From Flaccisagitta enflata (lineage: Eukaryota), in assembly GCA_965153355.1 (NCBI GenBank), contig OZ231126.1:32736001-32800000 (forward strand): a DNA stretch of 64,000 nt, in the 5' to 3' direction. The translations under genes were made by a program, and so were the position numbers. The notes below the pieces were generated by a model. The model had not been told where the DNA came from. It ran no database searches and saw only the letters and a program-made list of their open reading frames with translations. This document shows, piece by piece, positions 751 through 60,764 of this stretch. The stretch's first letter is position 1. Each line of letters begins with the position of its first letter.

Positions 751-1357
751 AAGCAGTTTTTTCAATTTTAGGTACCTTTTAAAATTTTCACAGCTCCTTT
801 TTACATAGCTCAATTAGGGTCTACATGGCAGTAAAATTGGCTCTACTCCAAGTTTAAGATGGTTTTAGAAAACGCCAAAACGTATTTTGGGCACTTTTTT
901 TTGAGACATTCGAACACGCACCTGATATTGGGTCAAGCAAGCCTGGATTAGTGTTCCCCAAGGTATTACGCACATTTCAAGACCCAACTTCATAGGGGTC
1001 CCCGGATTCGCCCTTTTTATGAAGCTCTACAGAGACTTATTCCTCAGACGGTCATTTTTTTATACAAAGCGTAACAGTATTTTAAAGGATAATAATATTT
1101 CTGAGACATTAAATTTTTTTTTATTTATTGCATCAGATTCTCGCTTTTTTCACAGTTCATGAAAGTCTCAGTATAGCATCACATACAGTATTCTAAGAAT
1201 AATTAAGACTTTTTGATTTTTTTTTGTTTCTAGGTAATGAAAAAAAAAGGTCCCTGTATTGTTTGCATGTGCCCAAAATTTACGGTTAACGGTGATTAAT
1301 GGGTAATCTTAACTTGGGGTCGATGATTAATACTATCATTAGCTGTTAGCATTGATA

Positions 1358-1466
<109 letters not shown>

Positions 1467-1913
1467 CACACAGACAGACAGACAGAGTGGCAGACAGAGG
1501 AGGAGAGAGACACAACGTCACCATACATACTACATAGACATAGACAAAGACAGTTTTGGGTGCCCAGAGCCGCGACCGGTGCAGAAGCGTCATATACAAC
1601 TTGGGGAACACCAATTACCTGCTGGCAATTTTTTTTGAAGGCAAAAAATTGCCTATTCCTTGTTTTTATCCAACCTCCATTTCGGCAGGATGTTGATTGA
1701 ATTTTTCATGCATATTAGAGGATGTCAGTCATCGAGGAATTCTACTTACCTTATTGTGATCAGGAAATCTTTAAAAAATGCATAGATTTTAAGTTGCGGA
1801 CTTGCAACTCAACAGGAGGTTTTGTCTGTACATTGGTCTGTCCATCCGTCAGTCCGTAAGTCCATTGGTTTGTCTGTTATGCTTATATTGAAAAATGCGC
1901 ACTCGAAAACAAA

Positions 1914-1979
<66 letters not shown>

Positions 1980-2650
1980 TTTAGGAATGGGTAGAAACTC
2001 TTTTTTCATTCATTTCGATTGAAAGACCTGATTCCTGGGATGATTACTGTGTATCAAATGCACTGAATTTGGAATGAAACAAATTTGGAATATAACAAAA
2101 ATTTAAATGAGAATGAATTTTTAAAACCTTACAACATAAATAAAAAGTGCAACAACATCTGTGGGCATTATAAGTGTTATTGCATCTTTTTTAATCAAAC
2201 AATAAAATCCTGATAAGGTCAATATTTGTCGAACCAGTTGATGTTGAATAAAATAATTGGTTGTTCTGCCTTATGACTGATGGTAGTTTTAGGTACTTGC
2301 AATTTGACCGTAATATGCAAATGAGATTTTGCTAATTATGCCTTTATTACATTGATAGGGTATATTTTGAAAGACACTGAAAATTCAAAAAATCGTCAAA
2401 AATGTGTTTTTTTTTTGGGGGGGGGGGAAGCATACATCATACAAGAATAAAAGATTAGAATTGATGATATGGATGAGTAGAAGAGGGAGGAGGAGGATAG
2501 TGAGGAGGAGGAGGAGGGAGGCTAGGTCAAACCCATTTTGCAACTAACTTTTGAAGTCGCCTGCAGTAGCAGAGGAGGAGAGGTCGCTGCGACTTTGTTA
2601 CTAGTAACAAAGTCGCTGCGACTGTTTCTTAGGAGGAGTTGGAGAAGCAA

Positions 2651-3557
2651 TTTGTCTATCATGATTCTAATTAGCATATTCCATCAGATATCACAAGGAC
2701 CTGGAAAAGAGATCTCTTTATTGTTGGATCTCACTAGCATACTCAAGTAAGTTATTTGGATCTCATTAGCATATTCAAGTAAGATAATCATGATTATGAG
2801 CTTTTATTCTTTAATGAATTCACCTGACAACACATTGTTGTGTTTGTTGTTGTTAAACTTGGATCTCATTAGCATACTCAAGTAAGTTATACTCTCATGG
2901 TGAATGTTGTTGTTGATGTCATTGCCACATATTCATGATATCTGAATGAATATTCATGGATAATATCGTCGTTAGTATGATCAGTAAGATCATGATATTC
3001 AGTATTGTTTGATTGTTGAAATAACATCGAGATAAGCGCAGCTAAAAAAAAAGATATATCCTAGATATCTGAAGTAATAACCATAGATAATATCATCATC
3101 AGTATGACGAGTAAAATCATGATATTCACTATTTCTTTAGTGTTGAAACAACAGCGAAATAAGCTTAGAAGGACACGCACTATCTCCCTTTCTCTCTTTG
3201 TGACTCTTCTATAGAAGGACACGCACAACTCGGCAGTCTTTTTCTTTATGTGGTTAAGACATGTAAGCACTTCCATGCATTAAGCATTCTTGTCTATCAT
3301 GATTCTAATTAGCATATTCCATCAGATATCACAAGGACCTGGAAAAGAGATCTCTTTATTGTTGGATCTCACTAGCATACTCAAGTAAGTTATTTGGATC
3401 TCATTAGCATATTCAAGTAAGATAATCATGATTATGAGCTTTTATTCTTTAATGAATTCACCTGACAACACATTGTTGTGTTTGTTGTTGTTAAACTTGG
3501 ATCTCATTAGCATACTCAAGTAAGTTATACTCTCATGGTGAATGTTGTTGTTGATGT

Positions 3558-3563
<6 letters not shown>
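2651..3563. repeat. Near-identical block of about 275 bp duplicated (2651-2925 and 3289-3563), in a region rich in the motif GGATCTCATTAGCATATTCAAGTAAG and in (GTT)n tracts
   Basis: TTGTCTATCATGATTCTAATTAGC...GATGTCATTG is present twice; the motif recurs many times between about 2725 and 4050. Confidence 0.85.
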
Positions 3564-3645
<82 letters not shown>

Positions 3646-3753
3646 ATTGTTGTTTAACTTGGATCTTTTGTTGACTTAGATCTCATCTCTTTAGCATACT
3701 CACGTAAGTTATACTCTCATGGTGAATGTTGTTGTTTTTGTTGTTGTTGATGT

Positions 3754-3838
<85 letters not shown>

Positions 3839-5448
3839 AAACAGCAGCTTGATCTCATTAGCATATTCACTCAATTGGCTCATCGAATTGGATGTCAATT
3901 CAGTAGCTTGATCTCATTAGCATTTTCAAGTAAGATTATCATGATTATGAGCTTTTATTCGTTAATGAATTCATAATCTGTTTCTTTAAATCAATTCATT
4001 CGTTCAATGAATTCAGTAGCTGGATCTCATTAGCATATTCAAGTAAGATAATCATGATTACGAGCTTTTCTTCTTTAATGAATTCGCCCGACAAGTCTTT
4101 TGGCAATCAATCAATCAATGGACAGGGTCAGAGGCAGGAGCCTCAAGTCCATCGGTACCCTTTGGGGTACTTATAAGGATAAGGGCTTTAAGCCCATTCA
4201 AATAAAACACAGTATTTCATGGAAGACTTCAGTCTTTTATTATAAAATAGAATCCACAAAAACATTTTCAAGCAAGATTATCATGATTATGAGCTTTTAT
4301 TCTTTAATGAATTCATAGTCTGTTTCGACTCCATTCATTTTAGTTGTTTAGTCTTACTTTGCCATAAAGAACCATTATCAATTTCAAGAAAAGGAGGCAG
4401 TGTACTGTAGTTACACAGTGCGAACTGATCAGCATGTAATGTAGTCTAAAAAACACAATTATTCATTTGTTTTCTTTATTCAATGAAATCAAATTATATT
4501 CAATAAAATCAATAGAATCACAAGAGTTTTGTTCACATGAAAACAAGGGACACATGCAGACTGAAATTGTATAATCATAAAAGAATGCATTCATGATATC
4601 TGAAGCGATATGATATTCAATAAATCTTGAATGTTGAAATACCACTAATTGCGGCTATCGCGGTGAGGAAAAAAGTCGTAAGCATTGGTCACAGATGAGC
4701 AGCTTTACTCACTGACATTCATTCTTGTATTTGCTTGCTTAAACATTGAACATATCTATTAATTTAGGACATTCGAAATCTGAAAAAAAGTGAGCTAAGT
4801 GAGCTGAATGAGCTTAAATGCTCAAAGATATACCCTCATGAATAAGAAAATGAAAACCATGTTTTTCTCGAATATGTCAAATAGTCAAAGAATGACTTTG
4901 ACTTTTTTCCAATCATCGGGATAAGTGAGCTAAGTGAGCTAAATGAGCTAAAATGCTCAAAAAAACACCCTCATGAATGAGAAAATGAAAACCATGTTTT
5001 TCTCGAATATGTCAAAGTCAAAGAATGACTTCGACTTTTTCCCAATCATCGGGATTAGCTAAGCTGTAAAGTAAAATGAAAATAAAATGCCACATATTCA
5101 TGATATCTGAATGAATATTCATGGATAATATCGTCGTTAGTATGATCAGTAAGATCATGATATTCAGTATTGTTTGATTGTTGAAATAACATCGAGATAA
5201 GCGCAGCTAAAAAAAAAGATATATCCTAGATATCTGAAGTAATAACCATAGATAATATCATCATCAGTATGACGAGTAAAATCATGATATTCACTATTTC
5301 TTTAGTGTTGAAACAACAGCGAAATAAGCTTAGAAGGACACGCACTATCTCCCTTTCTCTCTTTGTGACTCTTCTATAGAAGGACACGCACAACTCGGCA
5401 GTCTTTTTCTTTATGTGGTTAAGACATGTAAGCACTTCCATGCATTAA
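2924..5448. repeat. Block of about 360 bp duplicated at 2924-3282 and 5088-5448
   Basis: GCCACATATTCATGATATCTG...CCATGCATTAA occurs twice; the ORF track gives identical 71-aa peptides at 3061-3276 and 5226-5441. Confidence 0.9.
4642..5060. mobile_element. Fragment of an interspersed repeat family; an inverted related copy lies at about 61760-62610
   Basis: GCGGTGAGGAAAAAAGTCGTAAGCATTGGTCAC (about 4660) is the reverse complement of GTGACCAATGCTTACGACTTTTTTCCTCACGGC (about 62560); the TTCTCGAATATGTCAAA and AGCTAAATGAGCTAA motifs are also shared. Confidence 0.65.
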
Positions 5449-5519
5449 CAAAAGGACAATTTTATTAAACAAAAGATGAGATCTCTTCATTGTGCTACTG
5501 GGTTTCTCATATCACATCG

Positions 5520-5992
5520 CAATACTAATCTGCAAATATTCCATTAAATGAAATTCATATCGAGTATTTGTGCTTGCTATCAGCCATTATGCCAAAAATA
5601 CAGCCTCAAAATGATTTTTTATAAAGTATTTGTGTCTGTAATCAGCCAGTCACAAACTACCTAACTACTCTGCAAATATTTCATTAAATGGAATTCATAT
5701 TGAGTATTTGCGCTTGTTATCACCGATTATGCCCAAAAGACATCCTCGGAATGATTTCTCATGATCATTTGTGTTTGTTATCAGCTACTTAAGCCAAAAA
5801 GACAGCCAGTAATGATTTTTTATAAAGTATTTGTGTCTGTTATCAGCCAGTCACAAGCTACCTAACTACTCTGCAAATATTTCATTAAATGGAATTCATA
5901 TTGAGTATTTGCGCTTGTTATCACCAATTATGCCCAAAAGACATCCTCGGAATGATTTCTCATGATCATTTGTGTTTGTTATCAGCTACTTA
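5520..5992. repeat. Tandem repeat, period 200 bp (two near-complete units plus a degenerate partial one)
   Basis: CTAACTACTCTGCAAATATTTCATTAAATGGAATTCATATTGAG at 5661 and 5861; degenerate copy near 5525. Confidence 0.8.
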
Positions 5993-6872
5993 TGGTTAAA
6001 CTGTGATATGACAGTGGTCAGCATAAGGAACAAATCATGAAGCGCCTCTGTATTTAGACAGTTTGTAAGTTTCTATTTGAATAACGCATGGTAAGATATC
6101 ATCTAAAAAATCACCACAAATATCACAATCTACTCCTCCTCTGTCAAGATGATAGGTCAAATGGGCATTTTGGAGGGGAAGAGGAGGGAGGAGGAGGGAA
6201 GAGGAGGATATGGAGGAAAAGTCGCAAAGAATAGTCCTCCTCCTCCTGCCATGAATGATAGACTTGTGGTGGTGGTGATATCATCACTGGTGATTTCTGC
6301 CCCCTCTTCTAGTGGTAACTTCACTGGTAGCAAAATGGGTTTGACCCTAGATGGGAGGAGGAGGAGGAGGAGGAGGAGGAGGAGGAGGAGGTGGCGGAAG
6401 TGGGAAGTTGAAATTGCTGTTTTGGGCAATTTCAAACCAATATGCCTCATATCTGCCCCTTTGTGCCTCAATCAAACCTCTCAAAAGTCAAACTGCAAAC
6501 CAGCCCCTCGGACAACATGAGTATGAAATCTATCTACATTTTTAGATAACCATATGATCGCGCAATTTCATTACTAAAAATACATAAGATACAGACAAGA
6601 AGGTTCACTATGTGGAATTGTGGATTGTTAAATACTTGTGTTGCCAACCGACCATCAGATACATGCTTCGATGCAACTAAAAAGATAAATGACTAAAAAC
6701 AGTCCTGTAGGGACTGACAAATTTACCAATGTCTGGACACAATAAGATAAAAATGCTTGCAGACAACATAAACACTCCCCCTGCCCAAACGCTTGGTAAC
6801 TTTTTATCACTGCCCTTGCCAACCCCCACGCGACTAGGATAGTTGTGTATCTGGCCTTGGCCTCTGGCCACA

Positions 6873-7120
6873 TGAAAGTGCCTTTTACTTCCTACAGCAT
6901 CGATCTTGATACTGCACCTTCTTCCGCAAACAACCGCCGTGAAACTCGAGTTAGGGAATTGCTGGTTCTCAACTCCATCGTCGAAAAAATAATGATTAGT
7001 GATGGATTTTCCACGATCACATATCACGATGATGGGTCTAAAAAGCAAGGGACTGGAGCTTTCTCCGTTCAAGGCATTTCAATTAACCGAAAGTATCACC
7101 CACTTCCTACCCTTCCTATG
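6873..7120 (+). pseudogene. Possible DNA-transposase fragment
   Basis: Complex, protein-like reading (...STITYHDDGSKKQGTGAFSVQGISINRKYHPLPTLP) with a beta-strand-D-G pattern like the first catalytic Asp of DDE transposases; bounded by repeats; family not identified. Confidence 0.3.
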
Positions 7121-7853
7121 TAGCAAACACCACGTAGCGTGTAGCATCTTTTAGTCCTAGTAATATTCATTTGCAGCAAGTTGCAGCAATAACTATTTGG
7201 CTCACATGATTGATTTTTTATACATTCCAAATTAGTATAAAATATTCCATGAATGATCTACCGGTTGCTTGTTAAAAGTTGCTGCAAAAATCAAAGTTTC
7301 ATAACAATTATGGGTATACTACTCATATAACAACTGCAGCAAGTTGCTGCAAATTCATTATCCTTGATTTTCATCTCATGTTTAACTAGATTATTATTAC
7401 AGTTGTCAGAATCCCAGCAGAAGTACATCAATTCTTACATTTGTTTTTGATAATTGTAGTGGATTTTGCCAATTTTACAGCAAAAATGACATTTTTTGCA
7501 GCAACTTGCAGCAACTTTTCATAATTCAGGTACTCTAGAGTGCTGACGTTTTAGCAGGACGCATGATCTGTCAAAATACCCTAATTGCTACAGGTTTAGA
7601 AACATTTTTACCGCAGTAAAATTCCTTTAACCCAGAAAATCGCTCTGAAAAATAGGAATTTTCGCAAGAAATGCTGCATTGCTTAGTACACATATATATG
7701 CAGTAGGAGTCGATATGTACAGTGAATTTTTGGTCGGTTTATGGTTGTAAAGTGTTAAAGTAAGGTCCCCTCCACAATTAGAGCTATCGGTGGGCATTGT
7801 GGAATGAAAACTTTTCCCTCAGGCTTCCCTCAGGCTGTGGTGGTTTCCCCTCT

Positions 7854-8186
7854 AGTATAAAGCCACTATAAACTTGCGCGTCAAAACCTGATATGACAAA
7901 TGAACACCAAATTAGTACATTGGATCGGAGATAAAAGTGTCATATTTCAATAAGCAACAGTCGTATATCAATAGGCAACGGTAAACATCAATTTGCAACA
8001 TCAAATACTCACACTTGGCGCTTCCCAAACGCACATTGCGCACTCTCGACTTTGCAGAGGCCCACACTGGTATATATAACAAAAGCAACGATCACGTGAC
8101 GACCACGCACACGGGGAGAGCGATAAGAAACGGAGGCAGGTCCTTTTTTACTCAGATAGCATTACCCGTGCAGATAAGATATCACA
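7854..8186 (-). repeat. 3' LTR (left copy)
   Basis: Matches 11694-12026 without indels; about 8 substitutions counted by eye. Confidence 0.9.
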
Positions 8187-8727
8187 CCCCCGTCTAAAAA
8201 AGGACATAAAATGAAACCGGAGCAAAATCGCGGCCCAACGAGACTAAAATGATCATTGTAAGCAAAAATGATCAAATGGTAACCTTAAAAGATAAAATGA
8301 GGCGGGACCATGACTGTAAAATGAGAGCAATCATGCAGAAATGAAAGCAATCAAGCATAAAATGAAAGCAATCAGGCATAAAATGAAAGCAATCACGCTG
8401 TAAGATAAAAGCAGTCACACATAAAATGAAAGCAATCACAATGATCAAGCAATCATTGATAACATTGTACAATGATAAAATGAAACGAATCCATGTAGCA
8501 AGTAGTAAAAACATATTTGAAAAGACGCCGACGATCTTTTGTTTGAATCCAATTGTCTTTGGGAGACGATTGTCCTTTAGTAACGAAATGAGAGACGCCG
8601 ACGGTCTTTGATGTCCATGAGAACTTTAGTAACGATAATTTGTCTAGAAGACACGATTGTCCTCGAGACTGCGATGAGGGAAGATGAATGTTCATTAGAG
8701 TGGCCTAATGTTCATGAGAGGAATTGT

Positions 8728-11028
8728 TCACTTGATGACGAGGGGGAAATCAATCTTCTTCGTAAGCGCCCCCGCCATTAAGGGCATTGCAGCGCCCCTG
8801 CCATTGGCGAGAGCCGTCGCCTCCGAAATGTAACGTTGACAGAGAACTACCATTTTTAGCAAGATGGCGCTCTGGAGTAGAACCCGGTCATTGGACTTGA
8901 AATGTTGAGTCGGCAGAGGGAAAGCATTTACACCAAATGCGTCCTTATAGTCAAACTTGAAACAGATGCGATGACCATCAGGAAGCACGATGCAGGTGCT
9001 AGGATGGGAATGATGAACGCGGAACTTGTCCTTAACTTGTCCTTTCGCTGCCCTGGTCCAAAACGAAACATCGAAAGACAGGGTTGAGAACATTTGAATC
9101 TTGTAGGTAGTATCAATAACCATAAGAGACTTGGCAGTCTCAATGTGAAAGAACTCAATGAAATCTTGATGATCGAGTTTGACGCTGTAACGATTGTAAA
9201 CAAACAAAACTTTCAACGAAGTCAGTTTGTACTTAACTCTGGCTTTTCCTTTTGTCTTTTGCTCGATGTGGAGACGAAGAAAGGCAGCGCTTTCTGTGAA
9301 CGCCATCTTCAATGATGGATGACGTTGAATCCAAAATCTTGTCCTTGACTCGATTTGCGCGAGTTCGAATCCCGCGATGGTCATTGAAACATGAGAGAGT
9401 AGAATTGAGGGATTAGCAAACGAATCATTGGAGGGAGAACTAAACTCGATCTTAAACTTTTTCTTCCTTAGCTCAACCAGCGCGAGTTCGAGTCCCAGGC
9501 GGGCATTTAAAACATAGGGCTGAATCCTTTTAGAGACAAACTGTTTGCCCTTTCCTAACGGGTCTCTTGCCATAAACGGATCAAAGATCTGATACGTCAA
9601 TGCTATATCATGAAAATACCTTTTGTTCTTAGAATGACGATCCTGAATGAGCGCCCGTTCGTGAATTAACTTTGATGACAGGAGGTCGTTGACCTTGATT
9701 TCCTTCCTCTGGGTCCAACCGTTCCCCACGGTATCCCAGTCTTGAACATGTGGCACAGTGCCCCAAACGCGATCGTTTGACCTGAGAAGCTTGGGATTAG
9801 TAACAGAATAAAATGCCCAAATGACGTTGCTTCTCAGAGAGAGAAAGCAACTGTTTCTCAACAACAAATCAATGAAATCAGACTTGACCTTGACTTTGAT
9901 GGCGATGGATTTAACGTCCGTCGGTCCATCCACTTTGAAGCGTAGCCATTCATTCTTAGATTGGTGCAAATGACTCGAACCTTGGTGAAACAAACTCGAT
10001 GGGGAAGGAAATCTTGGATTAAAATTTGACTTATTGGAGCGATCAAACGTTGGGGTATATCCCCCAGCCTTTCGCTTTACACTGGAGCGAAACTTGATAA
10101 AATCAGAGACCAATGTTGATACTGTGATCAACTTCCTCTTTAAAATCGTGACCTTATGACGCAACTCGTTAAGAACCGATTTGCCCACAGTGCGCGGAAT
10201 TGACAGAAACTCGATCATATCAAAACCGCATCTCCCACAAAATGAGAATAGACGATAAACCAGATCGAAATCGCCATTTCTATTAATTTTAAGGCAAGAA
10301 ACAATTGGGTCAATCACCTTTCTGGATGGATCATTATCATGACCGTTACCAGTCCACTTGAAACTTGAAGTCATAGCGGCAAACTGTGGGACGCCAAAAG
10401 CGAATCCATTCATTTCCAACGGCCAAAAGCTTTTCACCGCCGGCTTTGAATGGAAAACTTGAAACGGGACCTTGTGTTGAGGGAAGTGAATCATAACGGT
10501 TGGTAGGATGAGACAAATGAGAATCATTATAAGAGGCAAAATTCCTTTGGGCAATGAAACCCGAGCCTTGTGACCATAATGCGGCCATTCACTTTCCATC
10601 TCACCATAGAGAGGATTTAACTTAGCTTTCAGTGGCGTCTTTTGATGCGGCGTCTCTTCCGGCGCCTTTGTCTCAACGCCGTCCAATTCCTGTGACTCGG
10701 GTTGATATGAAACTCGATCGTTGGTAGCGAACTCCGGCGAGCCCACCCACGTAGAACCCTTTGAAACCTTAGACTGAGAATGAGGTGGGGAATCAAAAGT
10801 AGCACTTTTTGAGAACAGATTTGGCGAAGAAAGAGAATCAGAATTCACTCCATCTAGATCGGTAAAAGCATCGCGAACAAGCTGAGGCTTGTCACCAACT
10901 TTAACACAAAACTTATCTTTTGACAACGACTGTAGCGGCGCCGTTTCTTCAGATGAATCTTGAAAGCTTCCACGATGAGGCTCAAACCCGAGGTCACGTG
11001 GTACGGATGTAACTATCTCTTGTGACAA
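8728..11028 (-). CDS. Element-encoded ORF2, at least 766 aa, unknown family, one hydrophobic (possible transmembrane or signal-anchor) segment
   Basis: 2.3-kb stop-free frame in non-repetitive sequence; the frame is open up to about 11094; GILPLIMILICLILPTVMIHF at aa about 162-182; the track start is a TTG and the first in-frame ATG is aa 144; no RT, RNase H, integrase, protease or CCHC motif seen. Confidence 0.7.
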   Translation of the reverse strand: MSQEIVTSVPRDLGFEPHRGSFQDSSEETAPLQSLSKDKFCVKVGDKPQLVRDAFTDLDGVNSDSLSSPNLFSKSATFDSPPHSQSKVSKGSTWVGSPEFATNDRVSYQPESQELDGVETKAPEETPHQKTPLKAKLNPLYGEMESEWPHYGHKARVSLPKGILPLIMILICLILPTVMIHFPQHKVPFQVFHSKPAVKSFWPLEMNGFAFGVPQFAAMTSSFKWTGNGHDNDPSRKVIDPIVSCLKINRNGDFDLVYRLFSFCGRCGFDMIEFLSIPRTVGKSVLNELRHKVTILKRKLITVSTLVSDFIKFRSSVKRKAGGYTPTFDRSNKSNFNPRFPSPSSLFHQGSSHLHQSKNEWLRFKVDGPTDVKSIAIKVKVKSDFIDLLLRNSCFLSLRSNVIWAFYSVTNPKLLRSNDRVWGTVPHVQDWDTVGNGWTQRKEIKVNDLLSSKLIHERALIQDRHSKNKRYFHDIALTYQIFDPFMARDPLGKGKQFVSKRIQPYVLNARLGLELALVELRKKKFKIEFSSPSNDSFANPSILLSHVSMTIAGFELAQIESRTRFWIQRHPSLKMAFTESAAFLRLHIEQKTKGKARVKYKLTSLKVLFVYNRYSVKLDHQDFIEFFHIETAKSLMVIDTTYKIQMFSTLSFDVSFWTRAAKGQVKDKFRVHHSHPSTCIVLPDGHRICFKFDYKDAFGVNAFPLPTQHFKSNDRVLLQSAILLKMVVLCQRYISEATALANGRGAAMPLMAGALTKKIDFPLVIK

Positions 11029-11324
11029 CGACTGTAGCGGCGCCGTGTCCTCCGTTGTAACTGGAGCGGTTCCTTTTCGCGCCGCTGTTCCTCTTTACGG
11101 CGCTGTCTCTCTTCACGGCGCAGTTCCTCTTCACGTTCGAGGGCTTCATCCTCTACTTTACGGCGTAATTCAACTTGACGTCCTAATTCTTTGAAATATT
11201 CTTCAAGTGCGGCTTCACCGCGGGACATGGCAGCCTCGGCGGCCACTTGGCAGTACATTGTATCAGCGATTAAAATAAACCAAGGGATCGAAGGCGGATC
11301 CATCTGCGCTCCTTTATTCTGCAT
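11013..11324 (-). CDS. Element-encoded ORF1, Glu/Arg-rich coiled-coil peptide overlapping ORF2 (ORF2 is in the -1 frame)
   Basis: ATG at 11324 (MQNKGAQMD...), then EEYFKELGRQVELRRKVEDEALEREEELRREERQRRKEEQRREKE; may be the N-terminus of one frameshifted ORF1-ORF2 protein. Confidence 0.5.
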   Translation of the reverse strand: MQNKGAQMDPPSIPWFILIADTMYCQVAAEAAMSRGEAALEEYFKELGRQVELRRKVEDEALEREEELRREERQRRKEEQRREKEPLQLQRRTRRRYSRCHKR

Positions 11325-11693
11325 CGTGACTGTACTGAAACAGACAATGATATAGGGGGAAAGAAACCTTGACACTGGTTTAGAATGACAAGTGACTTTA
11401 CTCAAACATTGAACTCTTTACATTGACTGATTCGACATCATCCCTAATGATCATCTTTACAGACACTATCGAGCAATCGAAGGCGGCCCCGACTATGCTC
11501 CTTTACTTAACTTTTGTGAATGGGATGACGAAAGGTTTTGTCGCGTGGCTTCATGACGAAAGTTGACGGGATTTTGACTTCGAGACGGAACTTCAAAGTG
11601 TTTTGACTGTGAGATTCTTTCTTGGACTGATGGACTGACTCCATGGAGAGCGCGCTAATAATAACACCGCATATCAGATGCAGAACGATTTAA

Positions 11694-12026
11694 TGTACAA
11701 AGCCACTATAAACATGCGCGTCAAAACCTGATATGACAAATGAACACCAAATTAGTACATTGGATCGGAGATAAAAGTGTCATATTTCAATAAGCAACAG
11801 TCGTATATCAATAGGCAACGGTAAACATCAATTTGCAACATCAAATACTCACACTTGGCGCTTCCCAAACGCACATTGCGCACTCTCGACTTTGCAGAGG
11901 CTCACACTGGTATTTATAAGAAAAGCAACGATCACGTGACGACCACGCACACGGGGAGAGCGATAAAAAACGGAGGCAGGTCCTTTTTTACTCAGATAGC
12001 ATTACCCGTGCAAATAAGATATCACA
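11694..12026 (-). repeat. 5' LTR (right copy)
   Basis: TG...CA termini; direct repeat of 7854-8186. Confidence 0.9.
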
Positions 12027-12402
12027 CTCTTTCTCTCCCACTTCTGTTTATATCCCACTCCAGCATGCTTCATGCTTCAGTACGTCGTGTTGTTTGTCTT
12101 TTCACCTACCCTCTTTTTTCCGTTCTTATTCTGTGACTATCCATCGGCGAGTACCCTATATTATCCTTTGGACGATTAGTAAATAGCTGTTACCCGCATT
12201 ATCGATTGTTACTCATTGATGCGGTTACAATCGGTCCTCTTCCTCTTCCTCTTTCTCTTCCTCCTCTTCCTCCTCCTACCAGAGTGTCGCCTGTAAACTT
12301 TGCTTTTCTCTTCATCGATCTGTTCATCATTCTATTTGTCTGTCTGTGTGTCTATCTGTCTTGGTCTGTCTGTGTGTCTATCTGTCTCTGTCTGTGTGTC
12401 TA

Positions 12403-17809: not shown

Positions 17810-20750
<2,941 letters not shown>

Positions 20751-56839: not shown

Positions 56840-57250
56840 ATATCAAATTATAAACAATAAGGAATGCTAACACAGTGGCCAAAAGGTGAAAATTAAGAAA
56901 AAGGCAATACAATTGAAAAGTTAAAGAATAACACGCTACATTAAGACAACTGGAATAAAGCCTGGATCAATCTTTAATTTTTTAGGTGCGACAAAGCACC
57001 TCTATAACTGGCTGTGTCCGTCGGTCGGTCGGTTGGTTGGTCTGTCTCCGGGGTAACGCATTCGTTCGACGATCCACACGTCGCACCTTATTGGCCTACT
57101 TGGCCTTGTTTCTCATCGTGTACTGATGATTGTCAGAGCTTTTTGCGCGTTGAATTCCTCTAATGTCAAGATTTTCTCCGCATCACGGAAGCGTTCCAAT
57201 TCCTCGACAAGCGACGCCGGAACTTCGTCTCTCCGCCATTCGAAGCCGTT
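56078..57250. repeat. Tandem duplication (56078-56614 and 56613-57250) covering the 3' end and downstream flank of the VHL-like gene
   Basis: Both copies start TTTTAGATCGAATGCATTAGGCC and end CTCCGCCATT(T/C)GAAGCCGTT; they differ in microsatellite content and a few substitutions. Confidence 0.9.
56477..56614 (-). pseudogene. Duplicated last approximately 45 codons of the VHL-like ORF
   Basis: Copy of 57113-57250 with 3 substitutions seen; it has no start codon of its own. Confidence 0.8.
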
Positions 57251-58135
57251 GGGGCGTCGAAGTCTTCTCAACAACCTCGTCGACAACGACTTCAACGAGG
57301 AAGCTTCGACGCGCAACTCGACTCGGAAAAATCCAGATGATCTCGGCCAAGTGGGGGCAAAAAAGACCGTCGACGAAGCGTTGGAGAAGTCGTTATCGAA
57401 GGTAATGGAGTCGTCTTGAAGACCGTCTCCCTCCGACGGCCTTTCACGCCCTTCTTCATCTGGTCTCACTCTCCAAGAAATGGCCATCCTCTCTGCGTCT
57501 TCATCGACAAACATCCAAGGACAACCAACTCGTGTTCGCACGCAGACATTCGACCACGCACGCACTCGGCCCATGCAGACGCGCACGCCATCTTCGTTGT
57601 AAGTAAACATGGTGCCAGTTTGAGAAGATCGGTTGAAGAATTGGACGTGAGAGAGCGCTTCGTGCGGTTGCGAGGCCCTTAGATGACGTCCTTGAAAATG
57701 GCCATCAATTGGATGAGGACTCGAGTATTCATCGAGGATAATATTGATGGCCGCGGATATCTGCGCAGACGTGGAAGAAGAAGTGTTTTTGGCCGTTCTT
57801 GTCGACATCATGGATGAATGAAGAGTCAGTCTCGGTGACAGATGAGATGGTTGACGCGAGCTGCTCGTCGACTCGCAATTGACCAAATGAAATCGTGCAA
57901 AAGCCATTTTCCCATCGCCGGTCCAAAATCGAAGGCTGCTTCCTAAAGGCTTGGATCCAGAGAGAGATGATTTGGCGGCGATTTCGATGCTATGAAGCGA
58001 TGGTTTTTGATGCTTTTGAGTAGTTAGGATTGTGTCCTCAGAACTTGCATGAATGTTTTCCGAGTCAAAGACGAAAATGGAAACGTCGGAGAGATTTGTG
58101 AATGTGACTTCAATGGTTGTGAGATGGGAATCCAT
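57113..58135 (-). CDS. Divergent VHL-like protein (beta domain plus VHL box), 340 aa, intronless
   Basis: HLRASQPHEALSHVQFFNRSSQTGTMFTYNEDG...TRVGCPWMFVD aligns by eye with pVHL [25 protein letters not shown]...SYRGHLWLFRD, gap-free over the VQFFNRS...WMFVD core; C-terminal SLKSLSTRLLRRL...EVPASLVEEL resembles TLKERCLQVVRSL...DIVRSLYEDL. Confidence 0.75.
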   Translation of the reverse strand: MDSHLTTIEVTFTNLSDVSIFVFDSENIHASSEDTILTTQKHQKPSLHSIEIAAKSSLSGSKPLGSSLRFWTGDGKMAFARFHLVNCESTSSSRQPSHLSPRLTLHSSMMSTRTAKNTSSSTSAQISAAINIILDEYSSPHPIDGHFQGRHLRASQPHEALSHVQFFNRSSQTGTMFTYNEDGVRVCMGRVRAWSNVCVRTRVGCPWMFVDEDAERMAISWRVRPDEEGRERPSEGDGLQDDSITFDNDFSNASSTVFFAPTWPRSSGFFRVELRVEASSLKSLSTRLLRRLRRPNGFEWRRDEVPASLVEELERFRDAEKILTLEEFNAQKALTIISTR

Positions 58136-58400
58136 GTTTTGTTCTTTATGATTGTTTGTGTATCTATGAACTTTGTTTTGTTTTATATTTAGATAACTGC
58201 GATGTGGGAAGTATTTGTTCCAATAATTTGTTATCTGTAAGGAGAAAAAAAAATAGTAAATGTGATTTAAAGTGAGAATTGTACATGGAAAATCACTGGA
58301 CCTGGCATTTTCTTCACAACAGGGAATGGGTATGTAGGTTCCATGAAAAAGGGTTGTGGGGGAATGATGTGTGAAATGCTATATTTACAAATTAAGCCTA

Positions 58401-60386
58401 CTATTTAACCAGAGGCAAAACTCTGTCAATCTCAGTCTTCTCGACACAAACTTTCTCTTGCAATTTTCGTGGCAAGTTGGAAATATCGATTCCTTGTTTG
58501 ACAATCTCCTTCAAACAAAGAGTCTGCAACGTTGGGCGAAAATCAAAGATCCTAAAATCCGAATAAATCAGTTGAACGTTGTCTTTATCGACGCTGGCGT
58601 TAACGTCGACAGATGTGCGCCAAATATCGAACAGAAACACTTGTCCGCCGACCACTGCGAAGCTTCGGCTCCGTGGGACCAACACATTGACTGGACCTCT
58701 TGATGATGGGACAGTCCTGTTAGAGGTTGAAGCGTGACTCTTCCTGTCAGCTTTTAACAGACCGATTTCAGTGTCACCATCTTGGTTCATGACTCCATGA
58801 TTTACATTTGAGGCGTTTAATCGGTCCGCGCTATTTGACTTCTTTGAGGCGCTTTCGCTTCTCGTCTGCTGTGAAAATCTGCTCCAAACTATGCTCCACT
58901 CGAAACATCTCGGGTTGAGACGCCACATCACTTGGAATGCATTGTCGCTTTTTCGGTCGCAAGACCCGAGAACGGCGTAAATTTGATCTTCGTAAATGAA
59001 TGTCGCAAGTGGACGTTGACTCGATGGTCGCTTCCCGGTCGTTTTCGTTTGTGTCCAGTGGTTGATTCGCCTGAGAAGGAAATATTGATGGACTAATTTG
59101 CATAATGCTGTGATCGTTTTCACTGTCATATTGATAGAAATATGCATGACCTTCCATACATATAACGTTAACAAAAAACTTGATAATATCAGCTTCAAAT
59201 ATAAGGGGAAGGCTTATTGCCAAGCACAGTACATTTTACGTGTTCATCAGGCTTGAAATTGATTGGATCTTATTTCTAAATCACATTTCCCGTCGCATTC
59301 ATTAATGCTGGAAAAATTGGTAGTTTTCCTCCCTTGGTCTTAGCTAATGAAGCTGGGCACAAGGTTGATACTACCTTAGTGCTTAATGTTAGGCATTGTT
59401 AGCACTTCATGGCTTCTCCATCCGACGTCTAGGAGAATATCAGACTTGATACAAAAACGTCCTGATACTTCAAGTAAAACTTTCCGCCCTTCTCTTTCGT
59501 ATTGAGATCTTGTTGGCGGTGTAGCCATTCAGGAGCATAAGGTGAGAGGCTAGTGAGGTGATTGACTACGTCAGTGTGGGGTGTCAGTTGTTAATTGCTA
59601 CCTGAATGGACGCCGACGAGAATTCGACGTCTTACTACTAACTACTTACGTGTCGAGAACGTAGACGCGATCGTAGCAATTGCCAACAATGCTAACTCTA
59701 TCTCCGACGAGATTCGCCTCCTGGCACCCGAAGAGAATCATGAATCGGTCTTCCAACGCGCAAACGGAATGAAAGGCGACTCCTCCAATCGGTTTCCCGG
59801 GCGAGTCTCCAGTCGTAGTCAACAGATTCCAAGTCATAGACAAAAAACAAAGTCTGTAGACTCGAGACCGCCGATGATTCGGCGTTTTGCCGCGGAAGAC
59901 GTACATCGCGTCTCCGATGACGCACGCTGATTGGCCGGATCCCATCGGCGGCGGAACGTCAACGCCGGTTACTTCCGGTCGCGACCAAGAATTGGTTTTA
60001 GGATCGAATCGGAATAAAATTGTACAGAATTCGCCGTTAGCTAGGCGACCGCCGAAAAGATACGCTTGACCACGCCACGAAACGCAGACGTGACCGATTC
60101 TTGCCCGGGGATGAGTCATGGCTTGCGCTGGCTGGTTGTTGCTGTTGTTGTTGTTGTTGTTGCTGTTGATGTTACTCAGAGGCGCGGAGACGACGCGCCA
60201 GATTAGCGAAGAGGGATCCAAAACATAAACGTTCAAAAACCGATTCTGTCTACGATGATTCAAAATATCGTCAACCGTGACATCGCCGCCGAAAGAATAA
60301 ACTTTTCCCTCGAGGACGACCGAAGGGTGGAATTCTTGGCGTGGATTTCCTAAGGAAGATCCAAATTGTTTTGAAGAACGCCACAT
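58401..60386 (-). CDS. Kelch-domain protein, KLHDC3-like, with C-terminal BC/Cul2 box, 468 aa; exons 60386-59650 and 59070-58401
   Basis: KVYSFGG, HPRARIGH..AYLFGG, LFRFDPKTNSWSRPEVTG and GQSACVIGDAMYVF repeats; phase-2 intron AC|GTAAGT...TTCTCAG|G; tail SDFRIFDFRPTLQTLCLKEIVKQGIDISNLP resembles KLHDC3 SDLHILDFSPSLKTLCKLAVIQYNLDQSCLP. Confidence 0.85.
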
Positions 60387-60764
60387 AATTAATGATTTGA
60401 TTTAGCCACGAAGAAGAACGATGAAATTTGCGTGGGTCACAATTTAAAAGTTCGCAATGTTCAGGATCATAAGATGTATGAGAAATGAATTATTGTGGAG
60501 GCAGAGCGAAAATAAGAAGTGTGAAGAAGGATTAAAAAAAAAACGCTTTTTACCCTCTTCGAAGACAATCTGATTGCTAGTGGATTTATTCCCGCGAAAT
60601 AGACTCATGTCGCCAACTGTCAATTGACGAGTGGAGAGGAGAAATTCCATTGTTCGTCAACTCACCGAGTATTCGGGATCTCATGGTGAAACTTGATTTC
60701 GACCCGAGGAAGAATTGATGGATTAGGAGAGACGAAGAATCAACACTGACCGAAAAAGACAGAG

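Follow-up and report, generated by a model that had tools for sequence, protein, structure and literature searches.

A 64-kb stretch of the genome of Flaccisagitta enflata (contig OZ231126.1 of assembly GCA_965153355.1, positions 32,736,001 to 32,800,000, read on the forward strand and here called the window) holds, at its positions 7854–12026, an element bounded by two long terminal repeats (LTRs) that contains a very long open reading frame (ORF), P0001, a shorter one upstream of it, P0002, and no recognizable pol gene. This raises the question of what kind of mobile unit the element is, how it could have been copied, and what its large ORF represents. As detailed below, we consider it on balance probable that the element is a defective and rearranged copy of an LTR retroelement, amplified in trans through a relative with the same ends, and that P0001 is what remains, after truncation, of an accessory gene that is specific to the family and situated where other elements have env or ORF3.

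The anatomy of the element is that of an LTR retroelement. Direct-repeat alignment and blastn both recovered the pair of 333-bp repeats described in the initial annotation, with eight differences (at 7854, 7858, 7874, 8062, 8074, 8080, 8127 and 8173), giving an identity of 97.6% over 333 bp (97.9% by blastn) and a Jukes–Cantor distance of 0.024. The repeats have TG..CA ends, with the right LTR reading TGTA...CACA and the left LTR likewise ending in CACA; base 7854 of the left LTR is an A, where other copies have a T. Since the dominant letter in the family is that of the right LTR at 8062, 8074, 8080 and 8173, the left-LTR changes at these positions are private to this copy, and half of the LTR differences are thus private changes of the left repeat, which is the pattern expected after insertion. 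A CTCT match adjoins both outer LTR ends, as noted initially, and lies in the 4–6 bp size range of target-site duplications; because both flanks are C/T-rich, with a chance match estimated at about 1–6%, it is weak evidence by itself. The tract resembling a polypurine tract (PPT) was also found as described, with T6 followed by AGACGGGGG lying directly against the downstream repeat on the minus strand, and no purine tract abutting a repeat was found in the plus orientation. Because both ORFs, the PPT-like tract and a TATAAAT are all on the minus strand, the element is read on that strand throughout. Between the repeats lies an interior of 3.5 kb that holds the 788-codon frame of P0001, ending in a tail of 541 nt from ORF stop to LTR, in which the number of copies of a 21-nt repeat differs among copies of the element (a joint leading back from 8398 to 8339 was seen). 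No third copy of the LTR or of the interior was found elsewhere in the 64-kb window using blastn or tblastn with the related fragments.

The genes of an autonomous element are missing from this interior. Regular expressions for YxDD, D[ST]G[AS], CCHC and HHCC gave no matches in any of the six frames of 7854–12026, and no Pfam family passed its cut-offs on the element, in line with the initial statement that pol-type motifs and a CCHC knuckle are lacking. The gag and pol genes (protease, reverse transcriptase/RNase H, integrase) of an autonomous LTR retrotransposon were accordingly not found in the element, and there is no room for pol in an interior already taken up by its ORFs, leader and tail. 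Pfam gave no usable match, including to any Gag family, in the 26 fragments related to the two ORFs, nor any Gag match in P0001 or P0002, although a very divergent Gag would escape this search; the best E-value over the Pfam searches, 0.036, failed the cut-off. Collections of assembled DNA did not reveal a more complete relative: there were no relatives of P0001 or the LTR in viral_contigs (queried with P0001 and a 30-nt LTR pattern), no related DNA in JGI metagenome contigs (26-nt inner-end pattern; alignment A4) and none in genome_contigs (30-nt LTR pattern; alignment A4).

The element belongs to a multi-copy family, as had been anticipated. Contigs of the DNA run X1, which like run X2 derives from the same organism, were aligned to 7400–11693 at ≥95% identity, and summed word depth, which is not equal to copy number, was used solely for contrasting the ends of the element with its interior. 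About half of the sampled words were present in X1 and X2, with smaller shares in several marine metagenome runs. In X1, 625 contigs at ≥95% identity matched these 4.3 kb and covered 29 of 30 bins, with exact-match contigs of 111–188 nt having word depths of 95–180. The many variant contigs per place in X1 exclude a single-copy locus. The ends are far deeper than the interior: the summed X1 depth was about 23000 for the repeat (7976–8263) and 15329 for the last 118 nt of the leader (bin 11576–11693), compared with roughly 300–2300 in most ORF bins (extremes 0 and 6636), and the drop is abrupt, from 22917 in bin 8120–8263 to 1708 in the adjacent bin. The LTR with about 80 nt at each inner end was thereby 10–25 times deeper than the ORF, and run X3 gave a profile of the same shape. 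The leader end equals the LTR in depth, so that this surplus does not consist of solo LTRs only, and other elements bear the same LTR and ends of about 80 nt. This fits the expectation for cis-acting ends held in common with a partner that supplies pol in trans. The initial proposal of a trans-mobilised element is to that extent supported by the excess of LTR and inner ends, but no partner element was found.

The same data bear on the possibility that a host gene or exon present in one copy lies by chance between two solo repeats inserted independently, which the initial annotation had itself raised. The flanks are indeed repetitive (7400–7831 having a depth of 1158–7200 in X1), as in a repeat-rich region, but the interior is multi-copy at ≥95% identity over 29 of the 30 bins and has 25 diverged relatives, some of them frameshifted, and CTCT is found on both outer sides. 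Both interior-to-repeat junctions moreover recur in other runs, the interior-to-LTR junction from 11693 through a T to 7855 being found in both X3 and X11. This explanation is hence nearly excluded, and we regard it as extremely improbable.

With regard to the surroundings and variants of the repeats, we also observed that the left flank at 7400–7831 is repeated in X3 as well (summed depth 35–195), and the element is probably nested in another repeat. An ORF of 83 codons close to the element, at 6872–7123, had no Pfam match. Some LTR variants in X1 and X3 miss 93–106 nt (joints 7900 to 8007 and 7901 to 7995), and in a further variant the bases after the LTR start are replaced; due to these deletion and replacement variants, several LTR subfamilies must exist.

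P0001 reads on the minus strand from 11094 to 8731 with 788 sense codons followed by a stop at 8728–8730, and the chance of that many open codons is about 2e-23 at the local base composition. The initial description of a stop-free frame with one hydrophobic segment was correct as to the open frame and the single segment, but its length is 788 codons rather than 766 and it has no start of its own: the first in-frame ATG lies as far in as 10599, and this ATG is not kept in the relatives. Only one segment, residues 184–204, has a Kyte–Doolittle mean above 1.6 over 19 residues. It is preceded by a Ser/Pro-rich part that contains a coding repeat and followed by a C-terminal part of 585 residues with seven Cys (nine in the whole frame) and two NxS/T sequons. 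No R-x-K/R-R site and no C-terminal anchor were found in P0001.

The protein has no known homologues in Pfam (E-value up to 1), PHROGs, or PDB searched with either sequence or profile, and the protein atlas gave no usable match for either the whole of P0001 or residues 205–788, which bears out the first impression that the ORF is of no known family. F-like, gB-like and other fusion-glycoprotein families gave no match to P0001 in Pfam (E-value up to 1), PDB or the protein atlas. The structure prediction that had been suggested as a check did not help, as the AlphaFold2 models had a mean predicted local distance difference test score (pLDDT) of 32.9 for the 623-residue part from the first ATG together with 10 fragments, and 39.7 for the C-terminal 184 residues together with 10 fragments; both models are unusable, and fold comparison is not meaningful because these scores are so low. 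In the literature on kinds of LTR elements, where the sequence itself was not the query, no paper describing this ORF family was found. Judged from its sequence, P0001 thus appears to be an orphan single-pass membrane protein, seemingly belonging to none of the compared families of accessory ORFs by the tests applied.

Within P0001 we also noted a 51-nt motif that occurs twice on the plus strand, at 9342–9392 and 9465–9515, 123 nt apart and 71% alike, and that includes GAGTTCGAATCCC and GAGTTCGAGTCCC. These we take to resemble a transfer RNA (tRNA) T-arm or B-box; ARAGORN and Rfam find no tRNA there. The peptides encoded on the coding strand by the two copies are ...GLELALVELR... and ...GFELAQIESR..., respectively.

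Relatives of P0001 do exist, all of them as short fragments. A full search of all 1.84 billion representative proteins at an E-value threshold of 0.001 gave 20 representatives of 69–192 residues, to which a word-indexed search of shorter proteins (12 listed) added four, including P0024 (428 aa) and P0025 (264 aa), and a cluster mate (P0023) one more. The resulting 25 fragments are 52–81% identical to P0001 and jointly span the length of the ORF. Ten fragments whose source was looked up came from ENA metagenome contigs of 506–1407 nt, in clusters of one or two members, and the hits of the shorter-protein search were also ENA-derived; all fragments come from marine metagenome contigs of less than 2 kb. 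No longer or fused form of P0001 was found among the representatives, contigs of this length telling nothing about neighbouring genes. In tblastn, four of the 25 fragments (P0008, P0010, and the cluster mates P0016 and P0023) change reading frame with respect to the ORF of the window. The stop position is shared by six of the eight sequences that reach it, the window included, and the last approximately 30 residues are the best conserved part of the family. The hydrophobicity of the span (mean Kyte–Doolittle value of 1.8–2.6) is kept in all four sequences covering it (the window and three fragments) while its residues differ, and the N-terminal coding repeat varies, by reading, from one unit in P0023 to three in P0024.

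These relatives speak to whether the ORF could instead be a host or viral gene that was recently captured by transduction. LTR elements do acquire extra ORFs, according to those parts of PMC5408684 and PMC11963269 that are drawn upon here. Against a capture, all matches among the 1.84 billion representatives were fragments resembling the element, at ≥52% identity, and more distant relatives from cells or viruses were not found. Furthermore, P0007 reads through the usual stop, and its match extends at 92% identity over part of the 3' tail (tblastn), so that the tail travels with the ORF. We find a recent capture decidedly improbable.

P0001 is truncated at its front in this copy, and the initial description of the ORF as intact cannot be upheld. 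All three relatives that reach the front of P0001 (P0024, P0015 and P0023) extend beyond it by at least 114 residues, with P0024 aligning from residue 6 of P0001 onwards and having 114 extra residues before that. The upstream sequences of these three relatives are absent from the window, residues 1–114 of P0024 remaining unmatched in tblastn, and the matches of both P0024 and P0015 start at 11079. In agreement with this, contigs from other copies match the window as far as 11074 and depart from it there (two in X1 and one, of 94 letters, in X3), and the overhang of the X3 contig, of which 30 letters are shown, encodes on the minus strand, as judged by eye, the residues of P0024 just before the shared part. 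Past 11074 other copies thus carry the Ser/Pro-rich front of the ORF, where the window carries the P0002 module. From these comparisons, the P0001 gene of this copy has lost at least 114 N-terminal codons.

P0002, which runs from 11324 to 11016 with 103 codons, has a Glu/Arg-rich C-terminal half, the composition of which makes a helix likely. It has a relative of its own, P0028, with 90% identity over 42 residues, which marks P0002 as a real module. Relative to P0002, P0001 is in the −1 frame, and the two overlap by 79 nt. A programmed −1 frameshift from P0002 into P0001 was considered and found unsupported, since there is no X XXY YYZ heptamer in the P0002 frame. Because the upstream module is different, has its own relative and contains no such slippery heptamer, the P0002 and P0001 halves must have been joined out of frame by a rearrangement.

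Taken as a defective retroelement copy, the locus would have arisen as follows. A member of a high-copy LTR-retroelement family would have inserted on the minus strand. This copy, in which no gag or pol signature was found, comprises in order the 5' LTR, the leader, the first approximately 83 codons of the P0002-module ORF, the 11074/11075 breakpoint, the second ORF minus at least 114 codons, the 541-nt tail with its tandem repeats, the PPT-like tract and the 3' LTR. This arrangement, the multi-copy state, the truncation and the surplus of the LTR and inner ends are established by the data above. Reverse transcription and integration of such copies would be carried out by proteins of a pol-bearing relative with the same LTR and the same terminal stretches of approximately 80 nt. 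The large ORF would be a family-specific accessory gene beside the 3' LTR, where env or ORF3 genes are found, and full-length relatives would encode a single-pass membrane protein of about 900 residues, with a Ser/Pro-rich and repeat-bearing N-terminal part, one span, a C-terminal domain of 585 residues and a strongly conserved tail. In the present copy, translation of the ORF could at best begin at 10599, where the ATG is not conserved, and more likely the ORF is not used.

Several results weigh against parts of this account. A reverse transcriptase was nowhere seen in the family, and because of that its retroelement nature is read from anatomy only. A TGG-type primer site was not found next to the inner ends of the two repeats, whichever way the element is read, when scanning about 50 nt in the minus and 60 nt in the plus orientation with TGG as the criterion; this agrees with the initial statement for the 5' LTR. 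The low numbers of sequons and Cys and the lack of both an R-x-K/R-R site and a C-terminal anchor speak, at the sequence level, against a classical envelope protein, and the suggestion of an env-like protein in the initial annotation is not sustained, the hallmarks of Env being absent. The exact-match contigs of X1 have about the same depth (approximately 165) at 11307–11613, in the P0002 region and leader, as those of the ORF (95–180), so that the rearranged form may itself be common and mobile. Moreover, the loss at 11074 might not be that of gag-pol but amount to only a few hundred bases, and pol may then be lacking from the family as a whole. Finally, the 22 substitutions in the ORF among copies at ≥95% identity divide into 8 synonymous and 14 non-synonymous, which at an expected synonymous share of 0.22–0.28 gives P-values of 0.10 and 0.27 and cannot be told apart from neutral decay. 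Given this and the frameshifts in four of the 25 fragments, the initial claim that the element maintains its own cargo gene is not supported. Along active lineages the long open fragments are a weak hint of selection, having been found precisely because they are open: among neutral sequences of equal divergence, substitution-only simulations left 1.7% (for P0024), 3.4% (for P0025) and up to 10% free of stops. In the window copy the open frame needs no selection, because the LTR divergence of 2.4% corresponds to an estimated one stop, approximately, expected since insertion.

A different explanation is that the family never had pol and is a two-ORF non-autonomous LTR element (P0002 and the large ORF) keeping its cargo gene under selection, with the window copy carrying a small deletion or a change in repeat number. 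There is no pol fragment by Pfam among the 26 related fragments, the contigs of P0002 and leader are similar to those of the ORF in exact-match depth, the ORF is open over long stretches at 64–75% identity (428 aa in P0024 and 264 aa in P0025), and the variable repeat number in the N-terminal part indicates a region prone to slippage. However, a neighbouring pol could not show in fragment contigs that are all below 2 kb, residues 1–114 of P0024 and P0002 share nothing, so that the junction joins two modules and is not a change in repeat number, and the variant counts give no sign of selection. We therefore hold a family that never had pol to be rather unlikely. It would be a long shot, furthermore, that the large ORF is the one protein that an abundant family lacking pol needs and keeps, and thereby a new kind of membrane-anchored retroelement protein; it would then serve, for example, as a cell-to-cell transfer or assembly factor for both the satellite and its pol-bearing partner, or as a mobilising protein of an undescribed type of element without a tRNA primer site.

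With regard to expression, no reads were found among 12.16 million sampled from the poly(A) RNA run X15, corresponding to about 6% of the run, which does not count against transcription. The metatranscriptomic RNA library X11 gave one contig of 383 nt, which consists of the leader end, the whole LTR and the start of the tail. This contig can be explained by LTR-transcript ends overlapping in R, by a tandem, by a one-LTR circle or by contaminating DNA, and is no proof of transcription.

The same contig enters into the question of whether the element is a retroelement at all, or a mobile or amplified unit at the DNA level with terminal direct repeats, such as a 3840-bp tandem or circle, for which the orphan ORF would be its own mobilising protein. 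Neither a primer-binding site nor a reverse transcriptase was found, the X11 contig reads from interior end through the whole repeat to interior start as a tandem or circle would, and most fragments from the C-terminal part retain a His-rich motif (VHHSH, then C, then DGHR). On the other hand, an assembler yields the same X11 contig from transcript ends overlapping in R, and the library may contain DNA; the TG..CA ends, the correctly placed purine tract, the TATA within the repeat and the short flanking duplication together make up the pattern of an LTR element; no recombinase or transposase family was matched by Pfam; and a membrane span would be unexpected in a transposase. We give little credence to such a DNA-level unit.

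At the border between repeat and interior we furthermore observed a perfect 11-nt complement between 8140–8150 in the LTR and 8195–8205 at the start of the interior, which brackets the purine tract and has an estimated chance expectation of about 0.002–0.01. It could form a hairpin at the PPT/U3 border or, in the opposite orientation, be a self-priming site. Self-priming was rejected, as the complement adjoins the 5' LTR solely when the element is read in the plus orientation, where no purine tract abuts the repeat and the reading would be antisense to both ORFs. No tRNA genes were found by ARAGORN in the 64-kb window, and no ribozyme, tRNA or other RNA families by Rfam in 7400–12400 at E-values up to 1.

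A defective copy mobilised in trans can be set beside several known kinds of LTR elements. The interiors of LARD and TRIM elements are non-coding, with TRIM elements being far smaller (interior below about 1 kb). They were reportedly treated by Kalendar et al. 2004 (LARD) and Witte et al. 2001 (TRIM). The present element is likewise non-autonomous and LTR-bounded, but its interior of 3.5 kb is not non-coding, having a 788-codon frame with a conserved family. The element also resembles LTR retrotransposons and endogenous retroviruses that are internally deleted or recombinant and depend on mobilisation in trans, which likewise have two LTRs, a flanking duplication and a PPT-like tract but no pol, as well as terminal cis segments common with more abundant relatives; unlike these, the present element has no known partner and no tRNA-type primer site, and what remains in it is the front piece of one ORF followed, in another frame, by a second ORF that is truncated. 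Non-autonomous derivatives amplified by complementation are well documented, and recently active plant LTR elements without coding domains rely on it, as stated in the portion of PMC11963269 used here. The short (below about 4 kb) non-autonomous TR-GAG elements of plants, as portrayed in part of PMC4350172, have a single ORF that is a GAG; our element is similarly short and non-autonomous with an ORF, but contains no Gag family and no CCHC, and its protein has a membrane span.

Elements with accessory ORFs form a further comparison. From the excerpts considered, F-like and gB-like Env proteins occur in Ty3/gypsy elements of many metazoans (PMC13524379), LTR elements of bdelloid rotifers have varied ORF3s (PMC5408684), and the MDG1 group has a short sORF2 membrane protein (PMC11952523). 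As far as these excerpts go, such elements resemble the present one in having a lineage-specific extra ORF beside the 3' LTR that encodes a membrane protein and is often an orphan, but differ in keeping gag and pol and in that their Env is F-like or gB-like or their sORF2 is short. In P0001, by contrast, the only span precedes a domain of 585 residues that is poor in Cys and sequons. Retroviral and errantiviral Env proteins, which are marked by a signal peptide, a furin-type site, a C-terminal anchor and an ectodomain rich in Cys and sequons, differ likewise from P0001, with its span at residues 184–204 of 788, no R-x-K/R-R site, two sequons and nine Cys. What is new is the orphan ORF family; the defective LTR element that contains it is otherwise ordinary, and the arrangement is of a known kind. 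The coordinates of all features are collected in Table 1.

Table 1. Features of the LTR-bounded element and its immediate flanks, given as positions in the 64-kb window.
Feature	Position	Strand	Evidence or remark
Left flanking CTCT	7850–7853		Sequence comparison; C/T-rich flank, weak alone
3' LTR, 333 bp	7854–8186	−	Direct-repeat alignment, blastn
PPT-like tract, T6 then AGACGGGGG, abutting the 3' LTR	8187–8201	−	
Likely shared cis-acting inner end beside the 3' LTR, as abundant as the LTR	8187–8268	−	Word depth
21-nt tandem repeat, 5.9 copies, between ORF stop and LTR	8317–8439		
Open frame P0001, 788 codons and stop, first ATG at 10599 (623 aa)	8728–11094	−	
Sole hydrophobic (transmembrane-like) segment, P0001 residues 184–204	10483–10545	−	
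Coding repeat, two copies, spaced by 102 nt	10916–11073	−	56-nt cores at 10916–10971 and 11018–11073, 80% alike
ORF P0002, 103 codons and stop	11013–11324	−	
Breakpoint	11074–11075		Loose ends of contigs; P0024 and P0015 matches start at 11079
Leader, 5' LTR to P0002	11325–11693	−	LTR-proximal part (about 11614–11693) as abundant as the LTR
5' LTR, 333 bp, with TATAAAT at 11912–11918 (minus-strand reading)	11694–12026	−	
Right flanking CTCT	12027–12030		

Elsewhere in the window, the sole clear cellular gene noticed was a Kelch-repeat host gene with frames at 57116–60401 on the minus strand, of which 59649–60401 matched Pfam Kelch_KLHDC2_KLHL20_DRC7 with an E-value of 1.8e-28 and 58404–59213 is a weaker continuation. 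An (AGAA)n array at 17908–20749 (2.8 kb, about 708 copies, 79% matches) causes an extreme GC and AT skew at 18–20 kb, and many more (TC)n, (AG)n, (AC)n and (TCTC)n arrays are found throughout the window.

At present these findings are mainly of use for the repeat annotation of this genome, as they define an LTR, the ends shared with other elements, and an orphan ORF, which gene-finding programs will annotate as a gene. Should the ORF prove to be maintained by selection throughout the family, the growing number of accessory proteins of LTR elements other than Env would gain an orphan membrane protein, and there would be a case of an accessory gene outliving gag and pol in a poorly sampled marine lineage.

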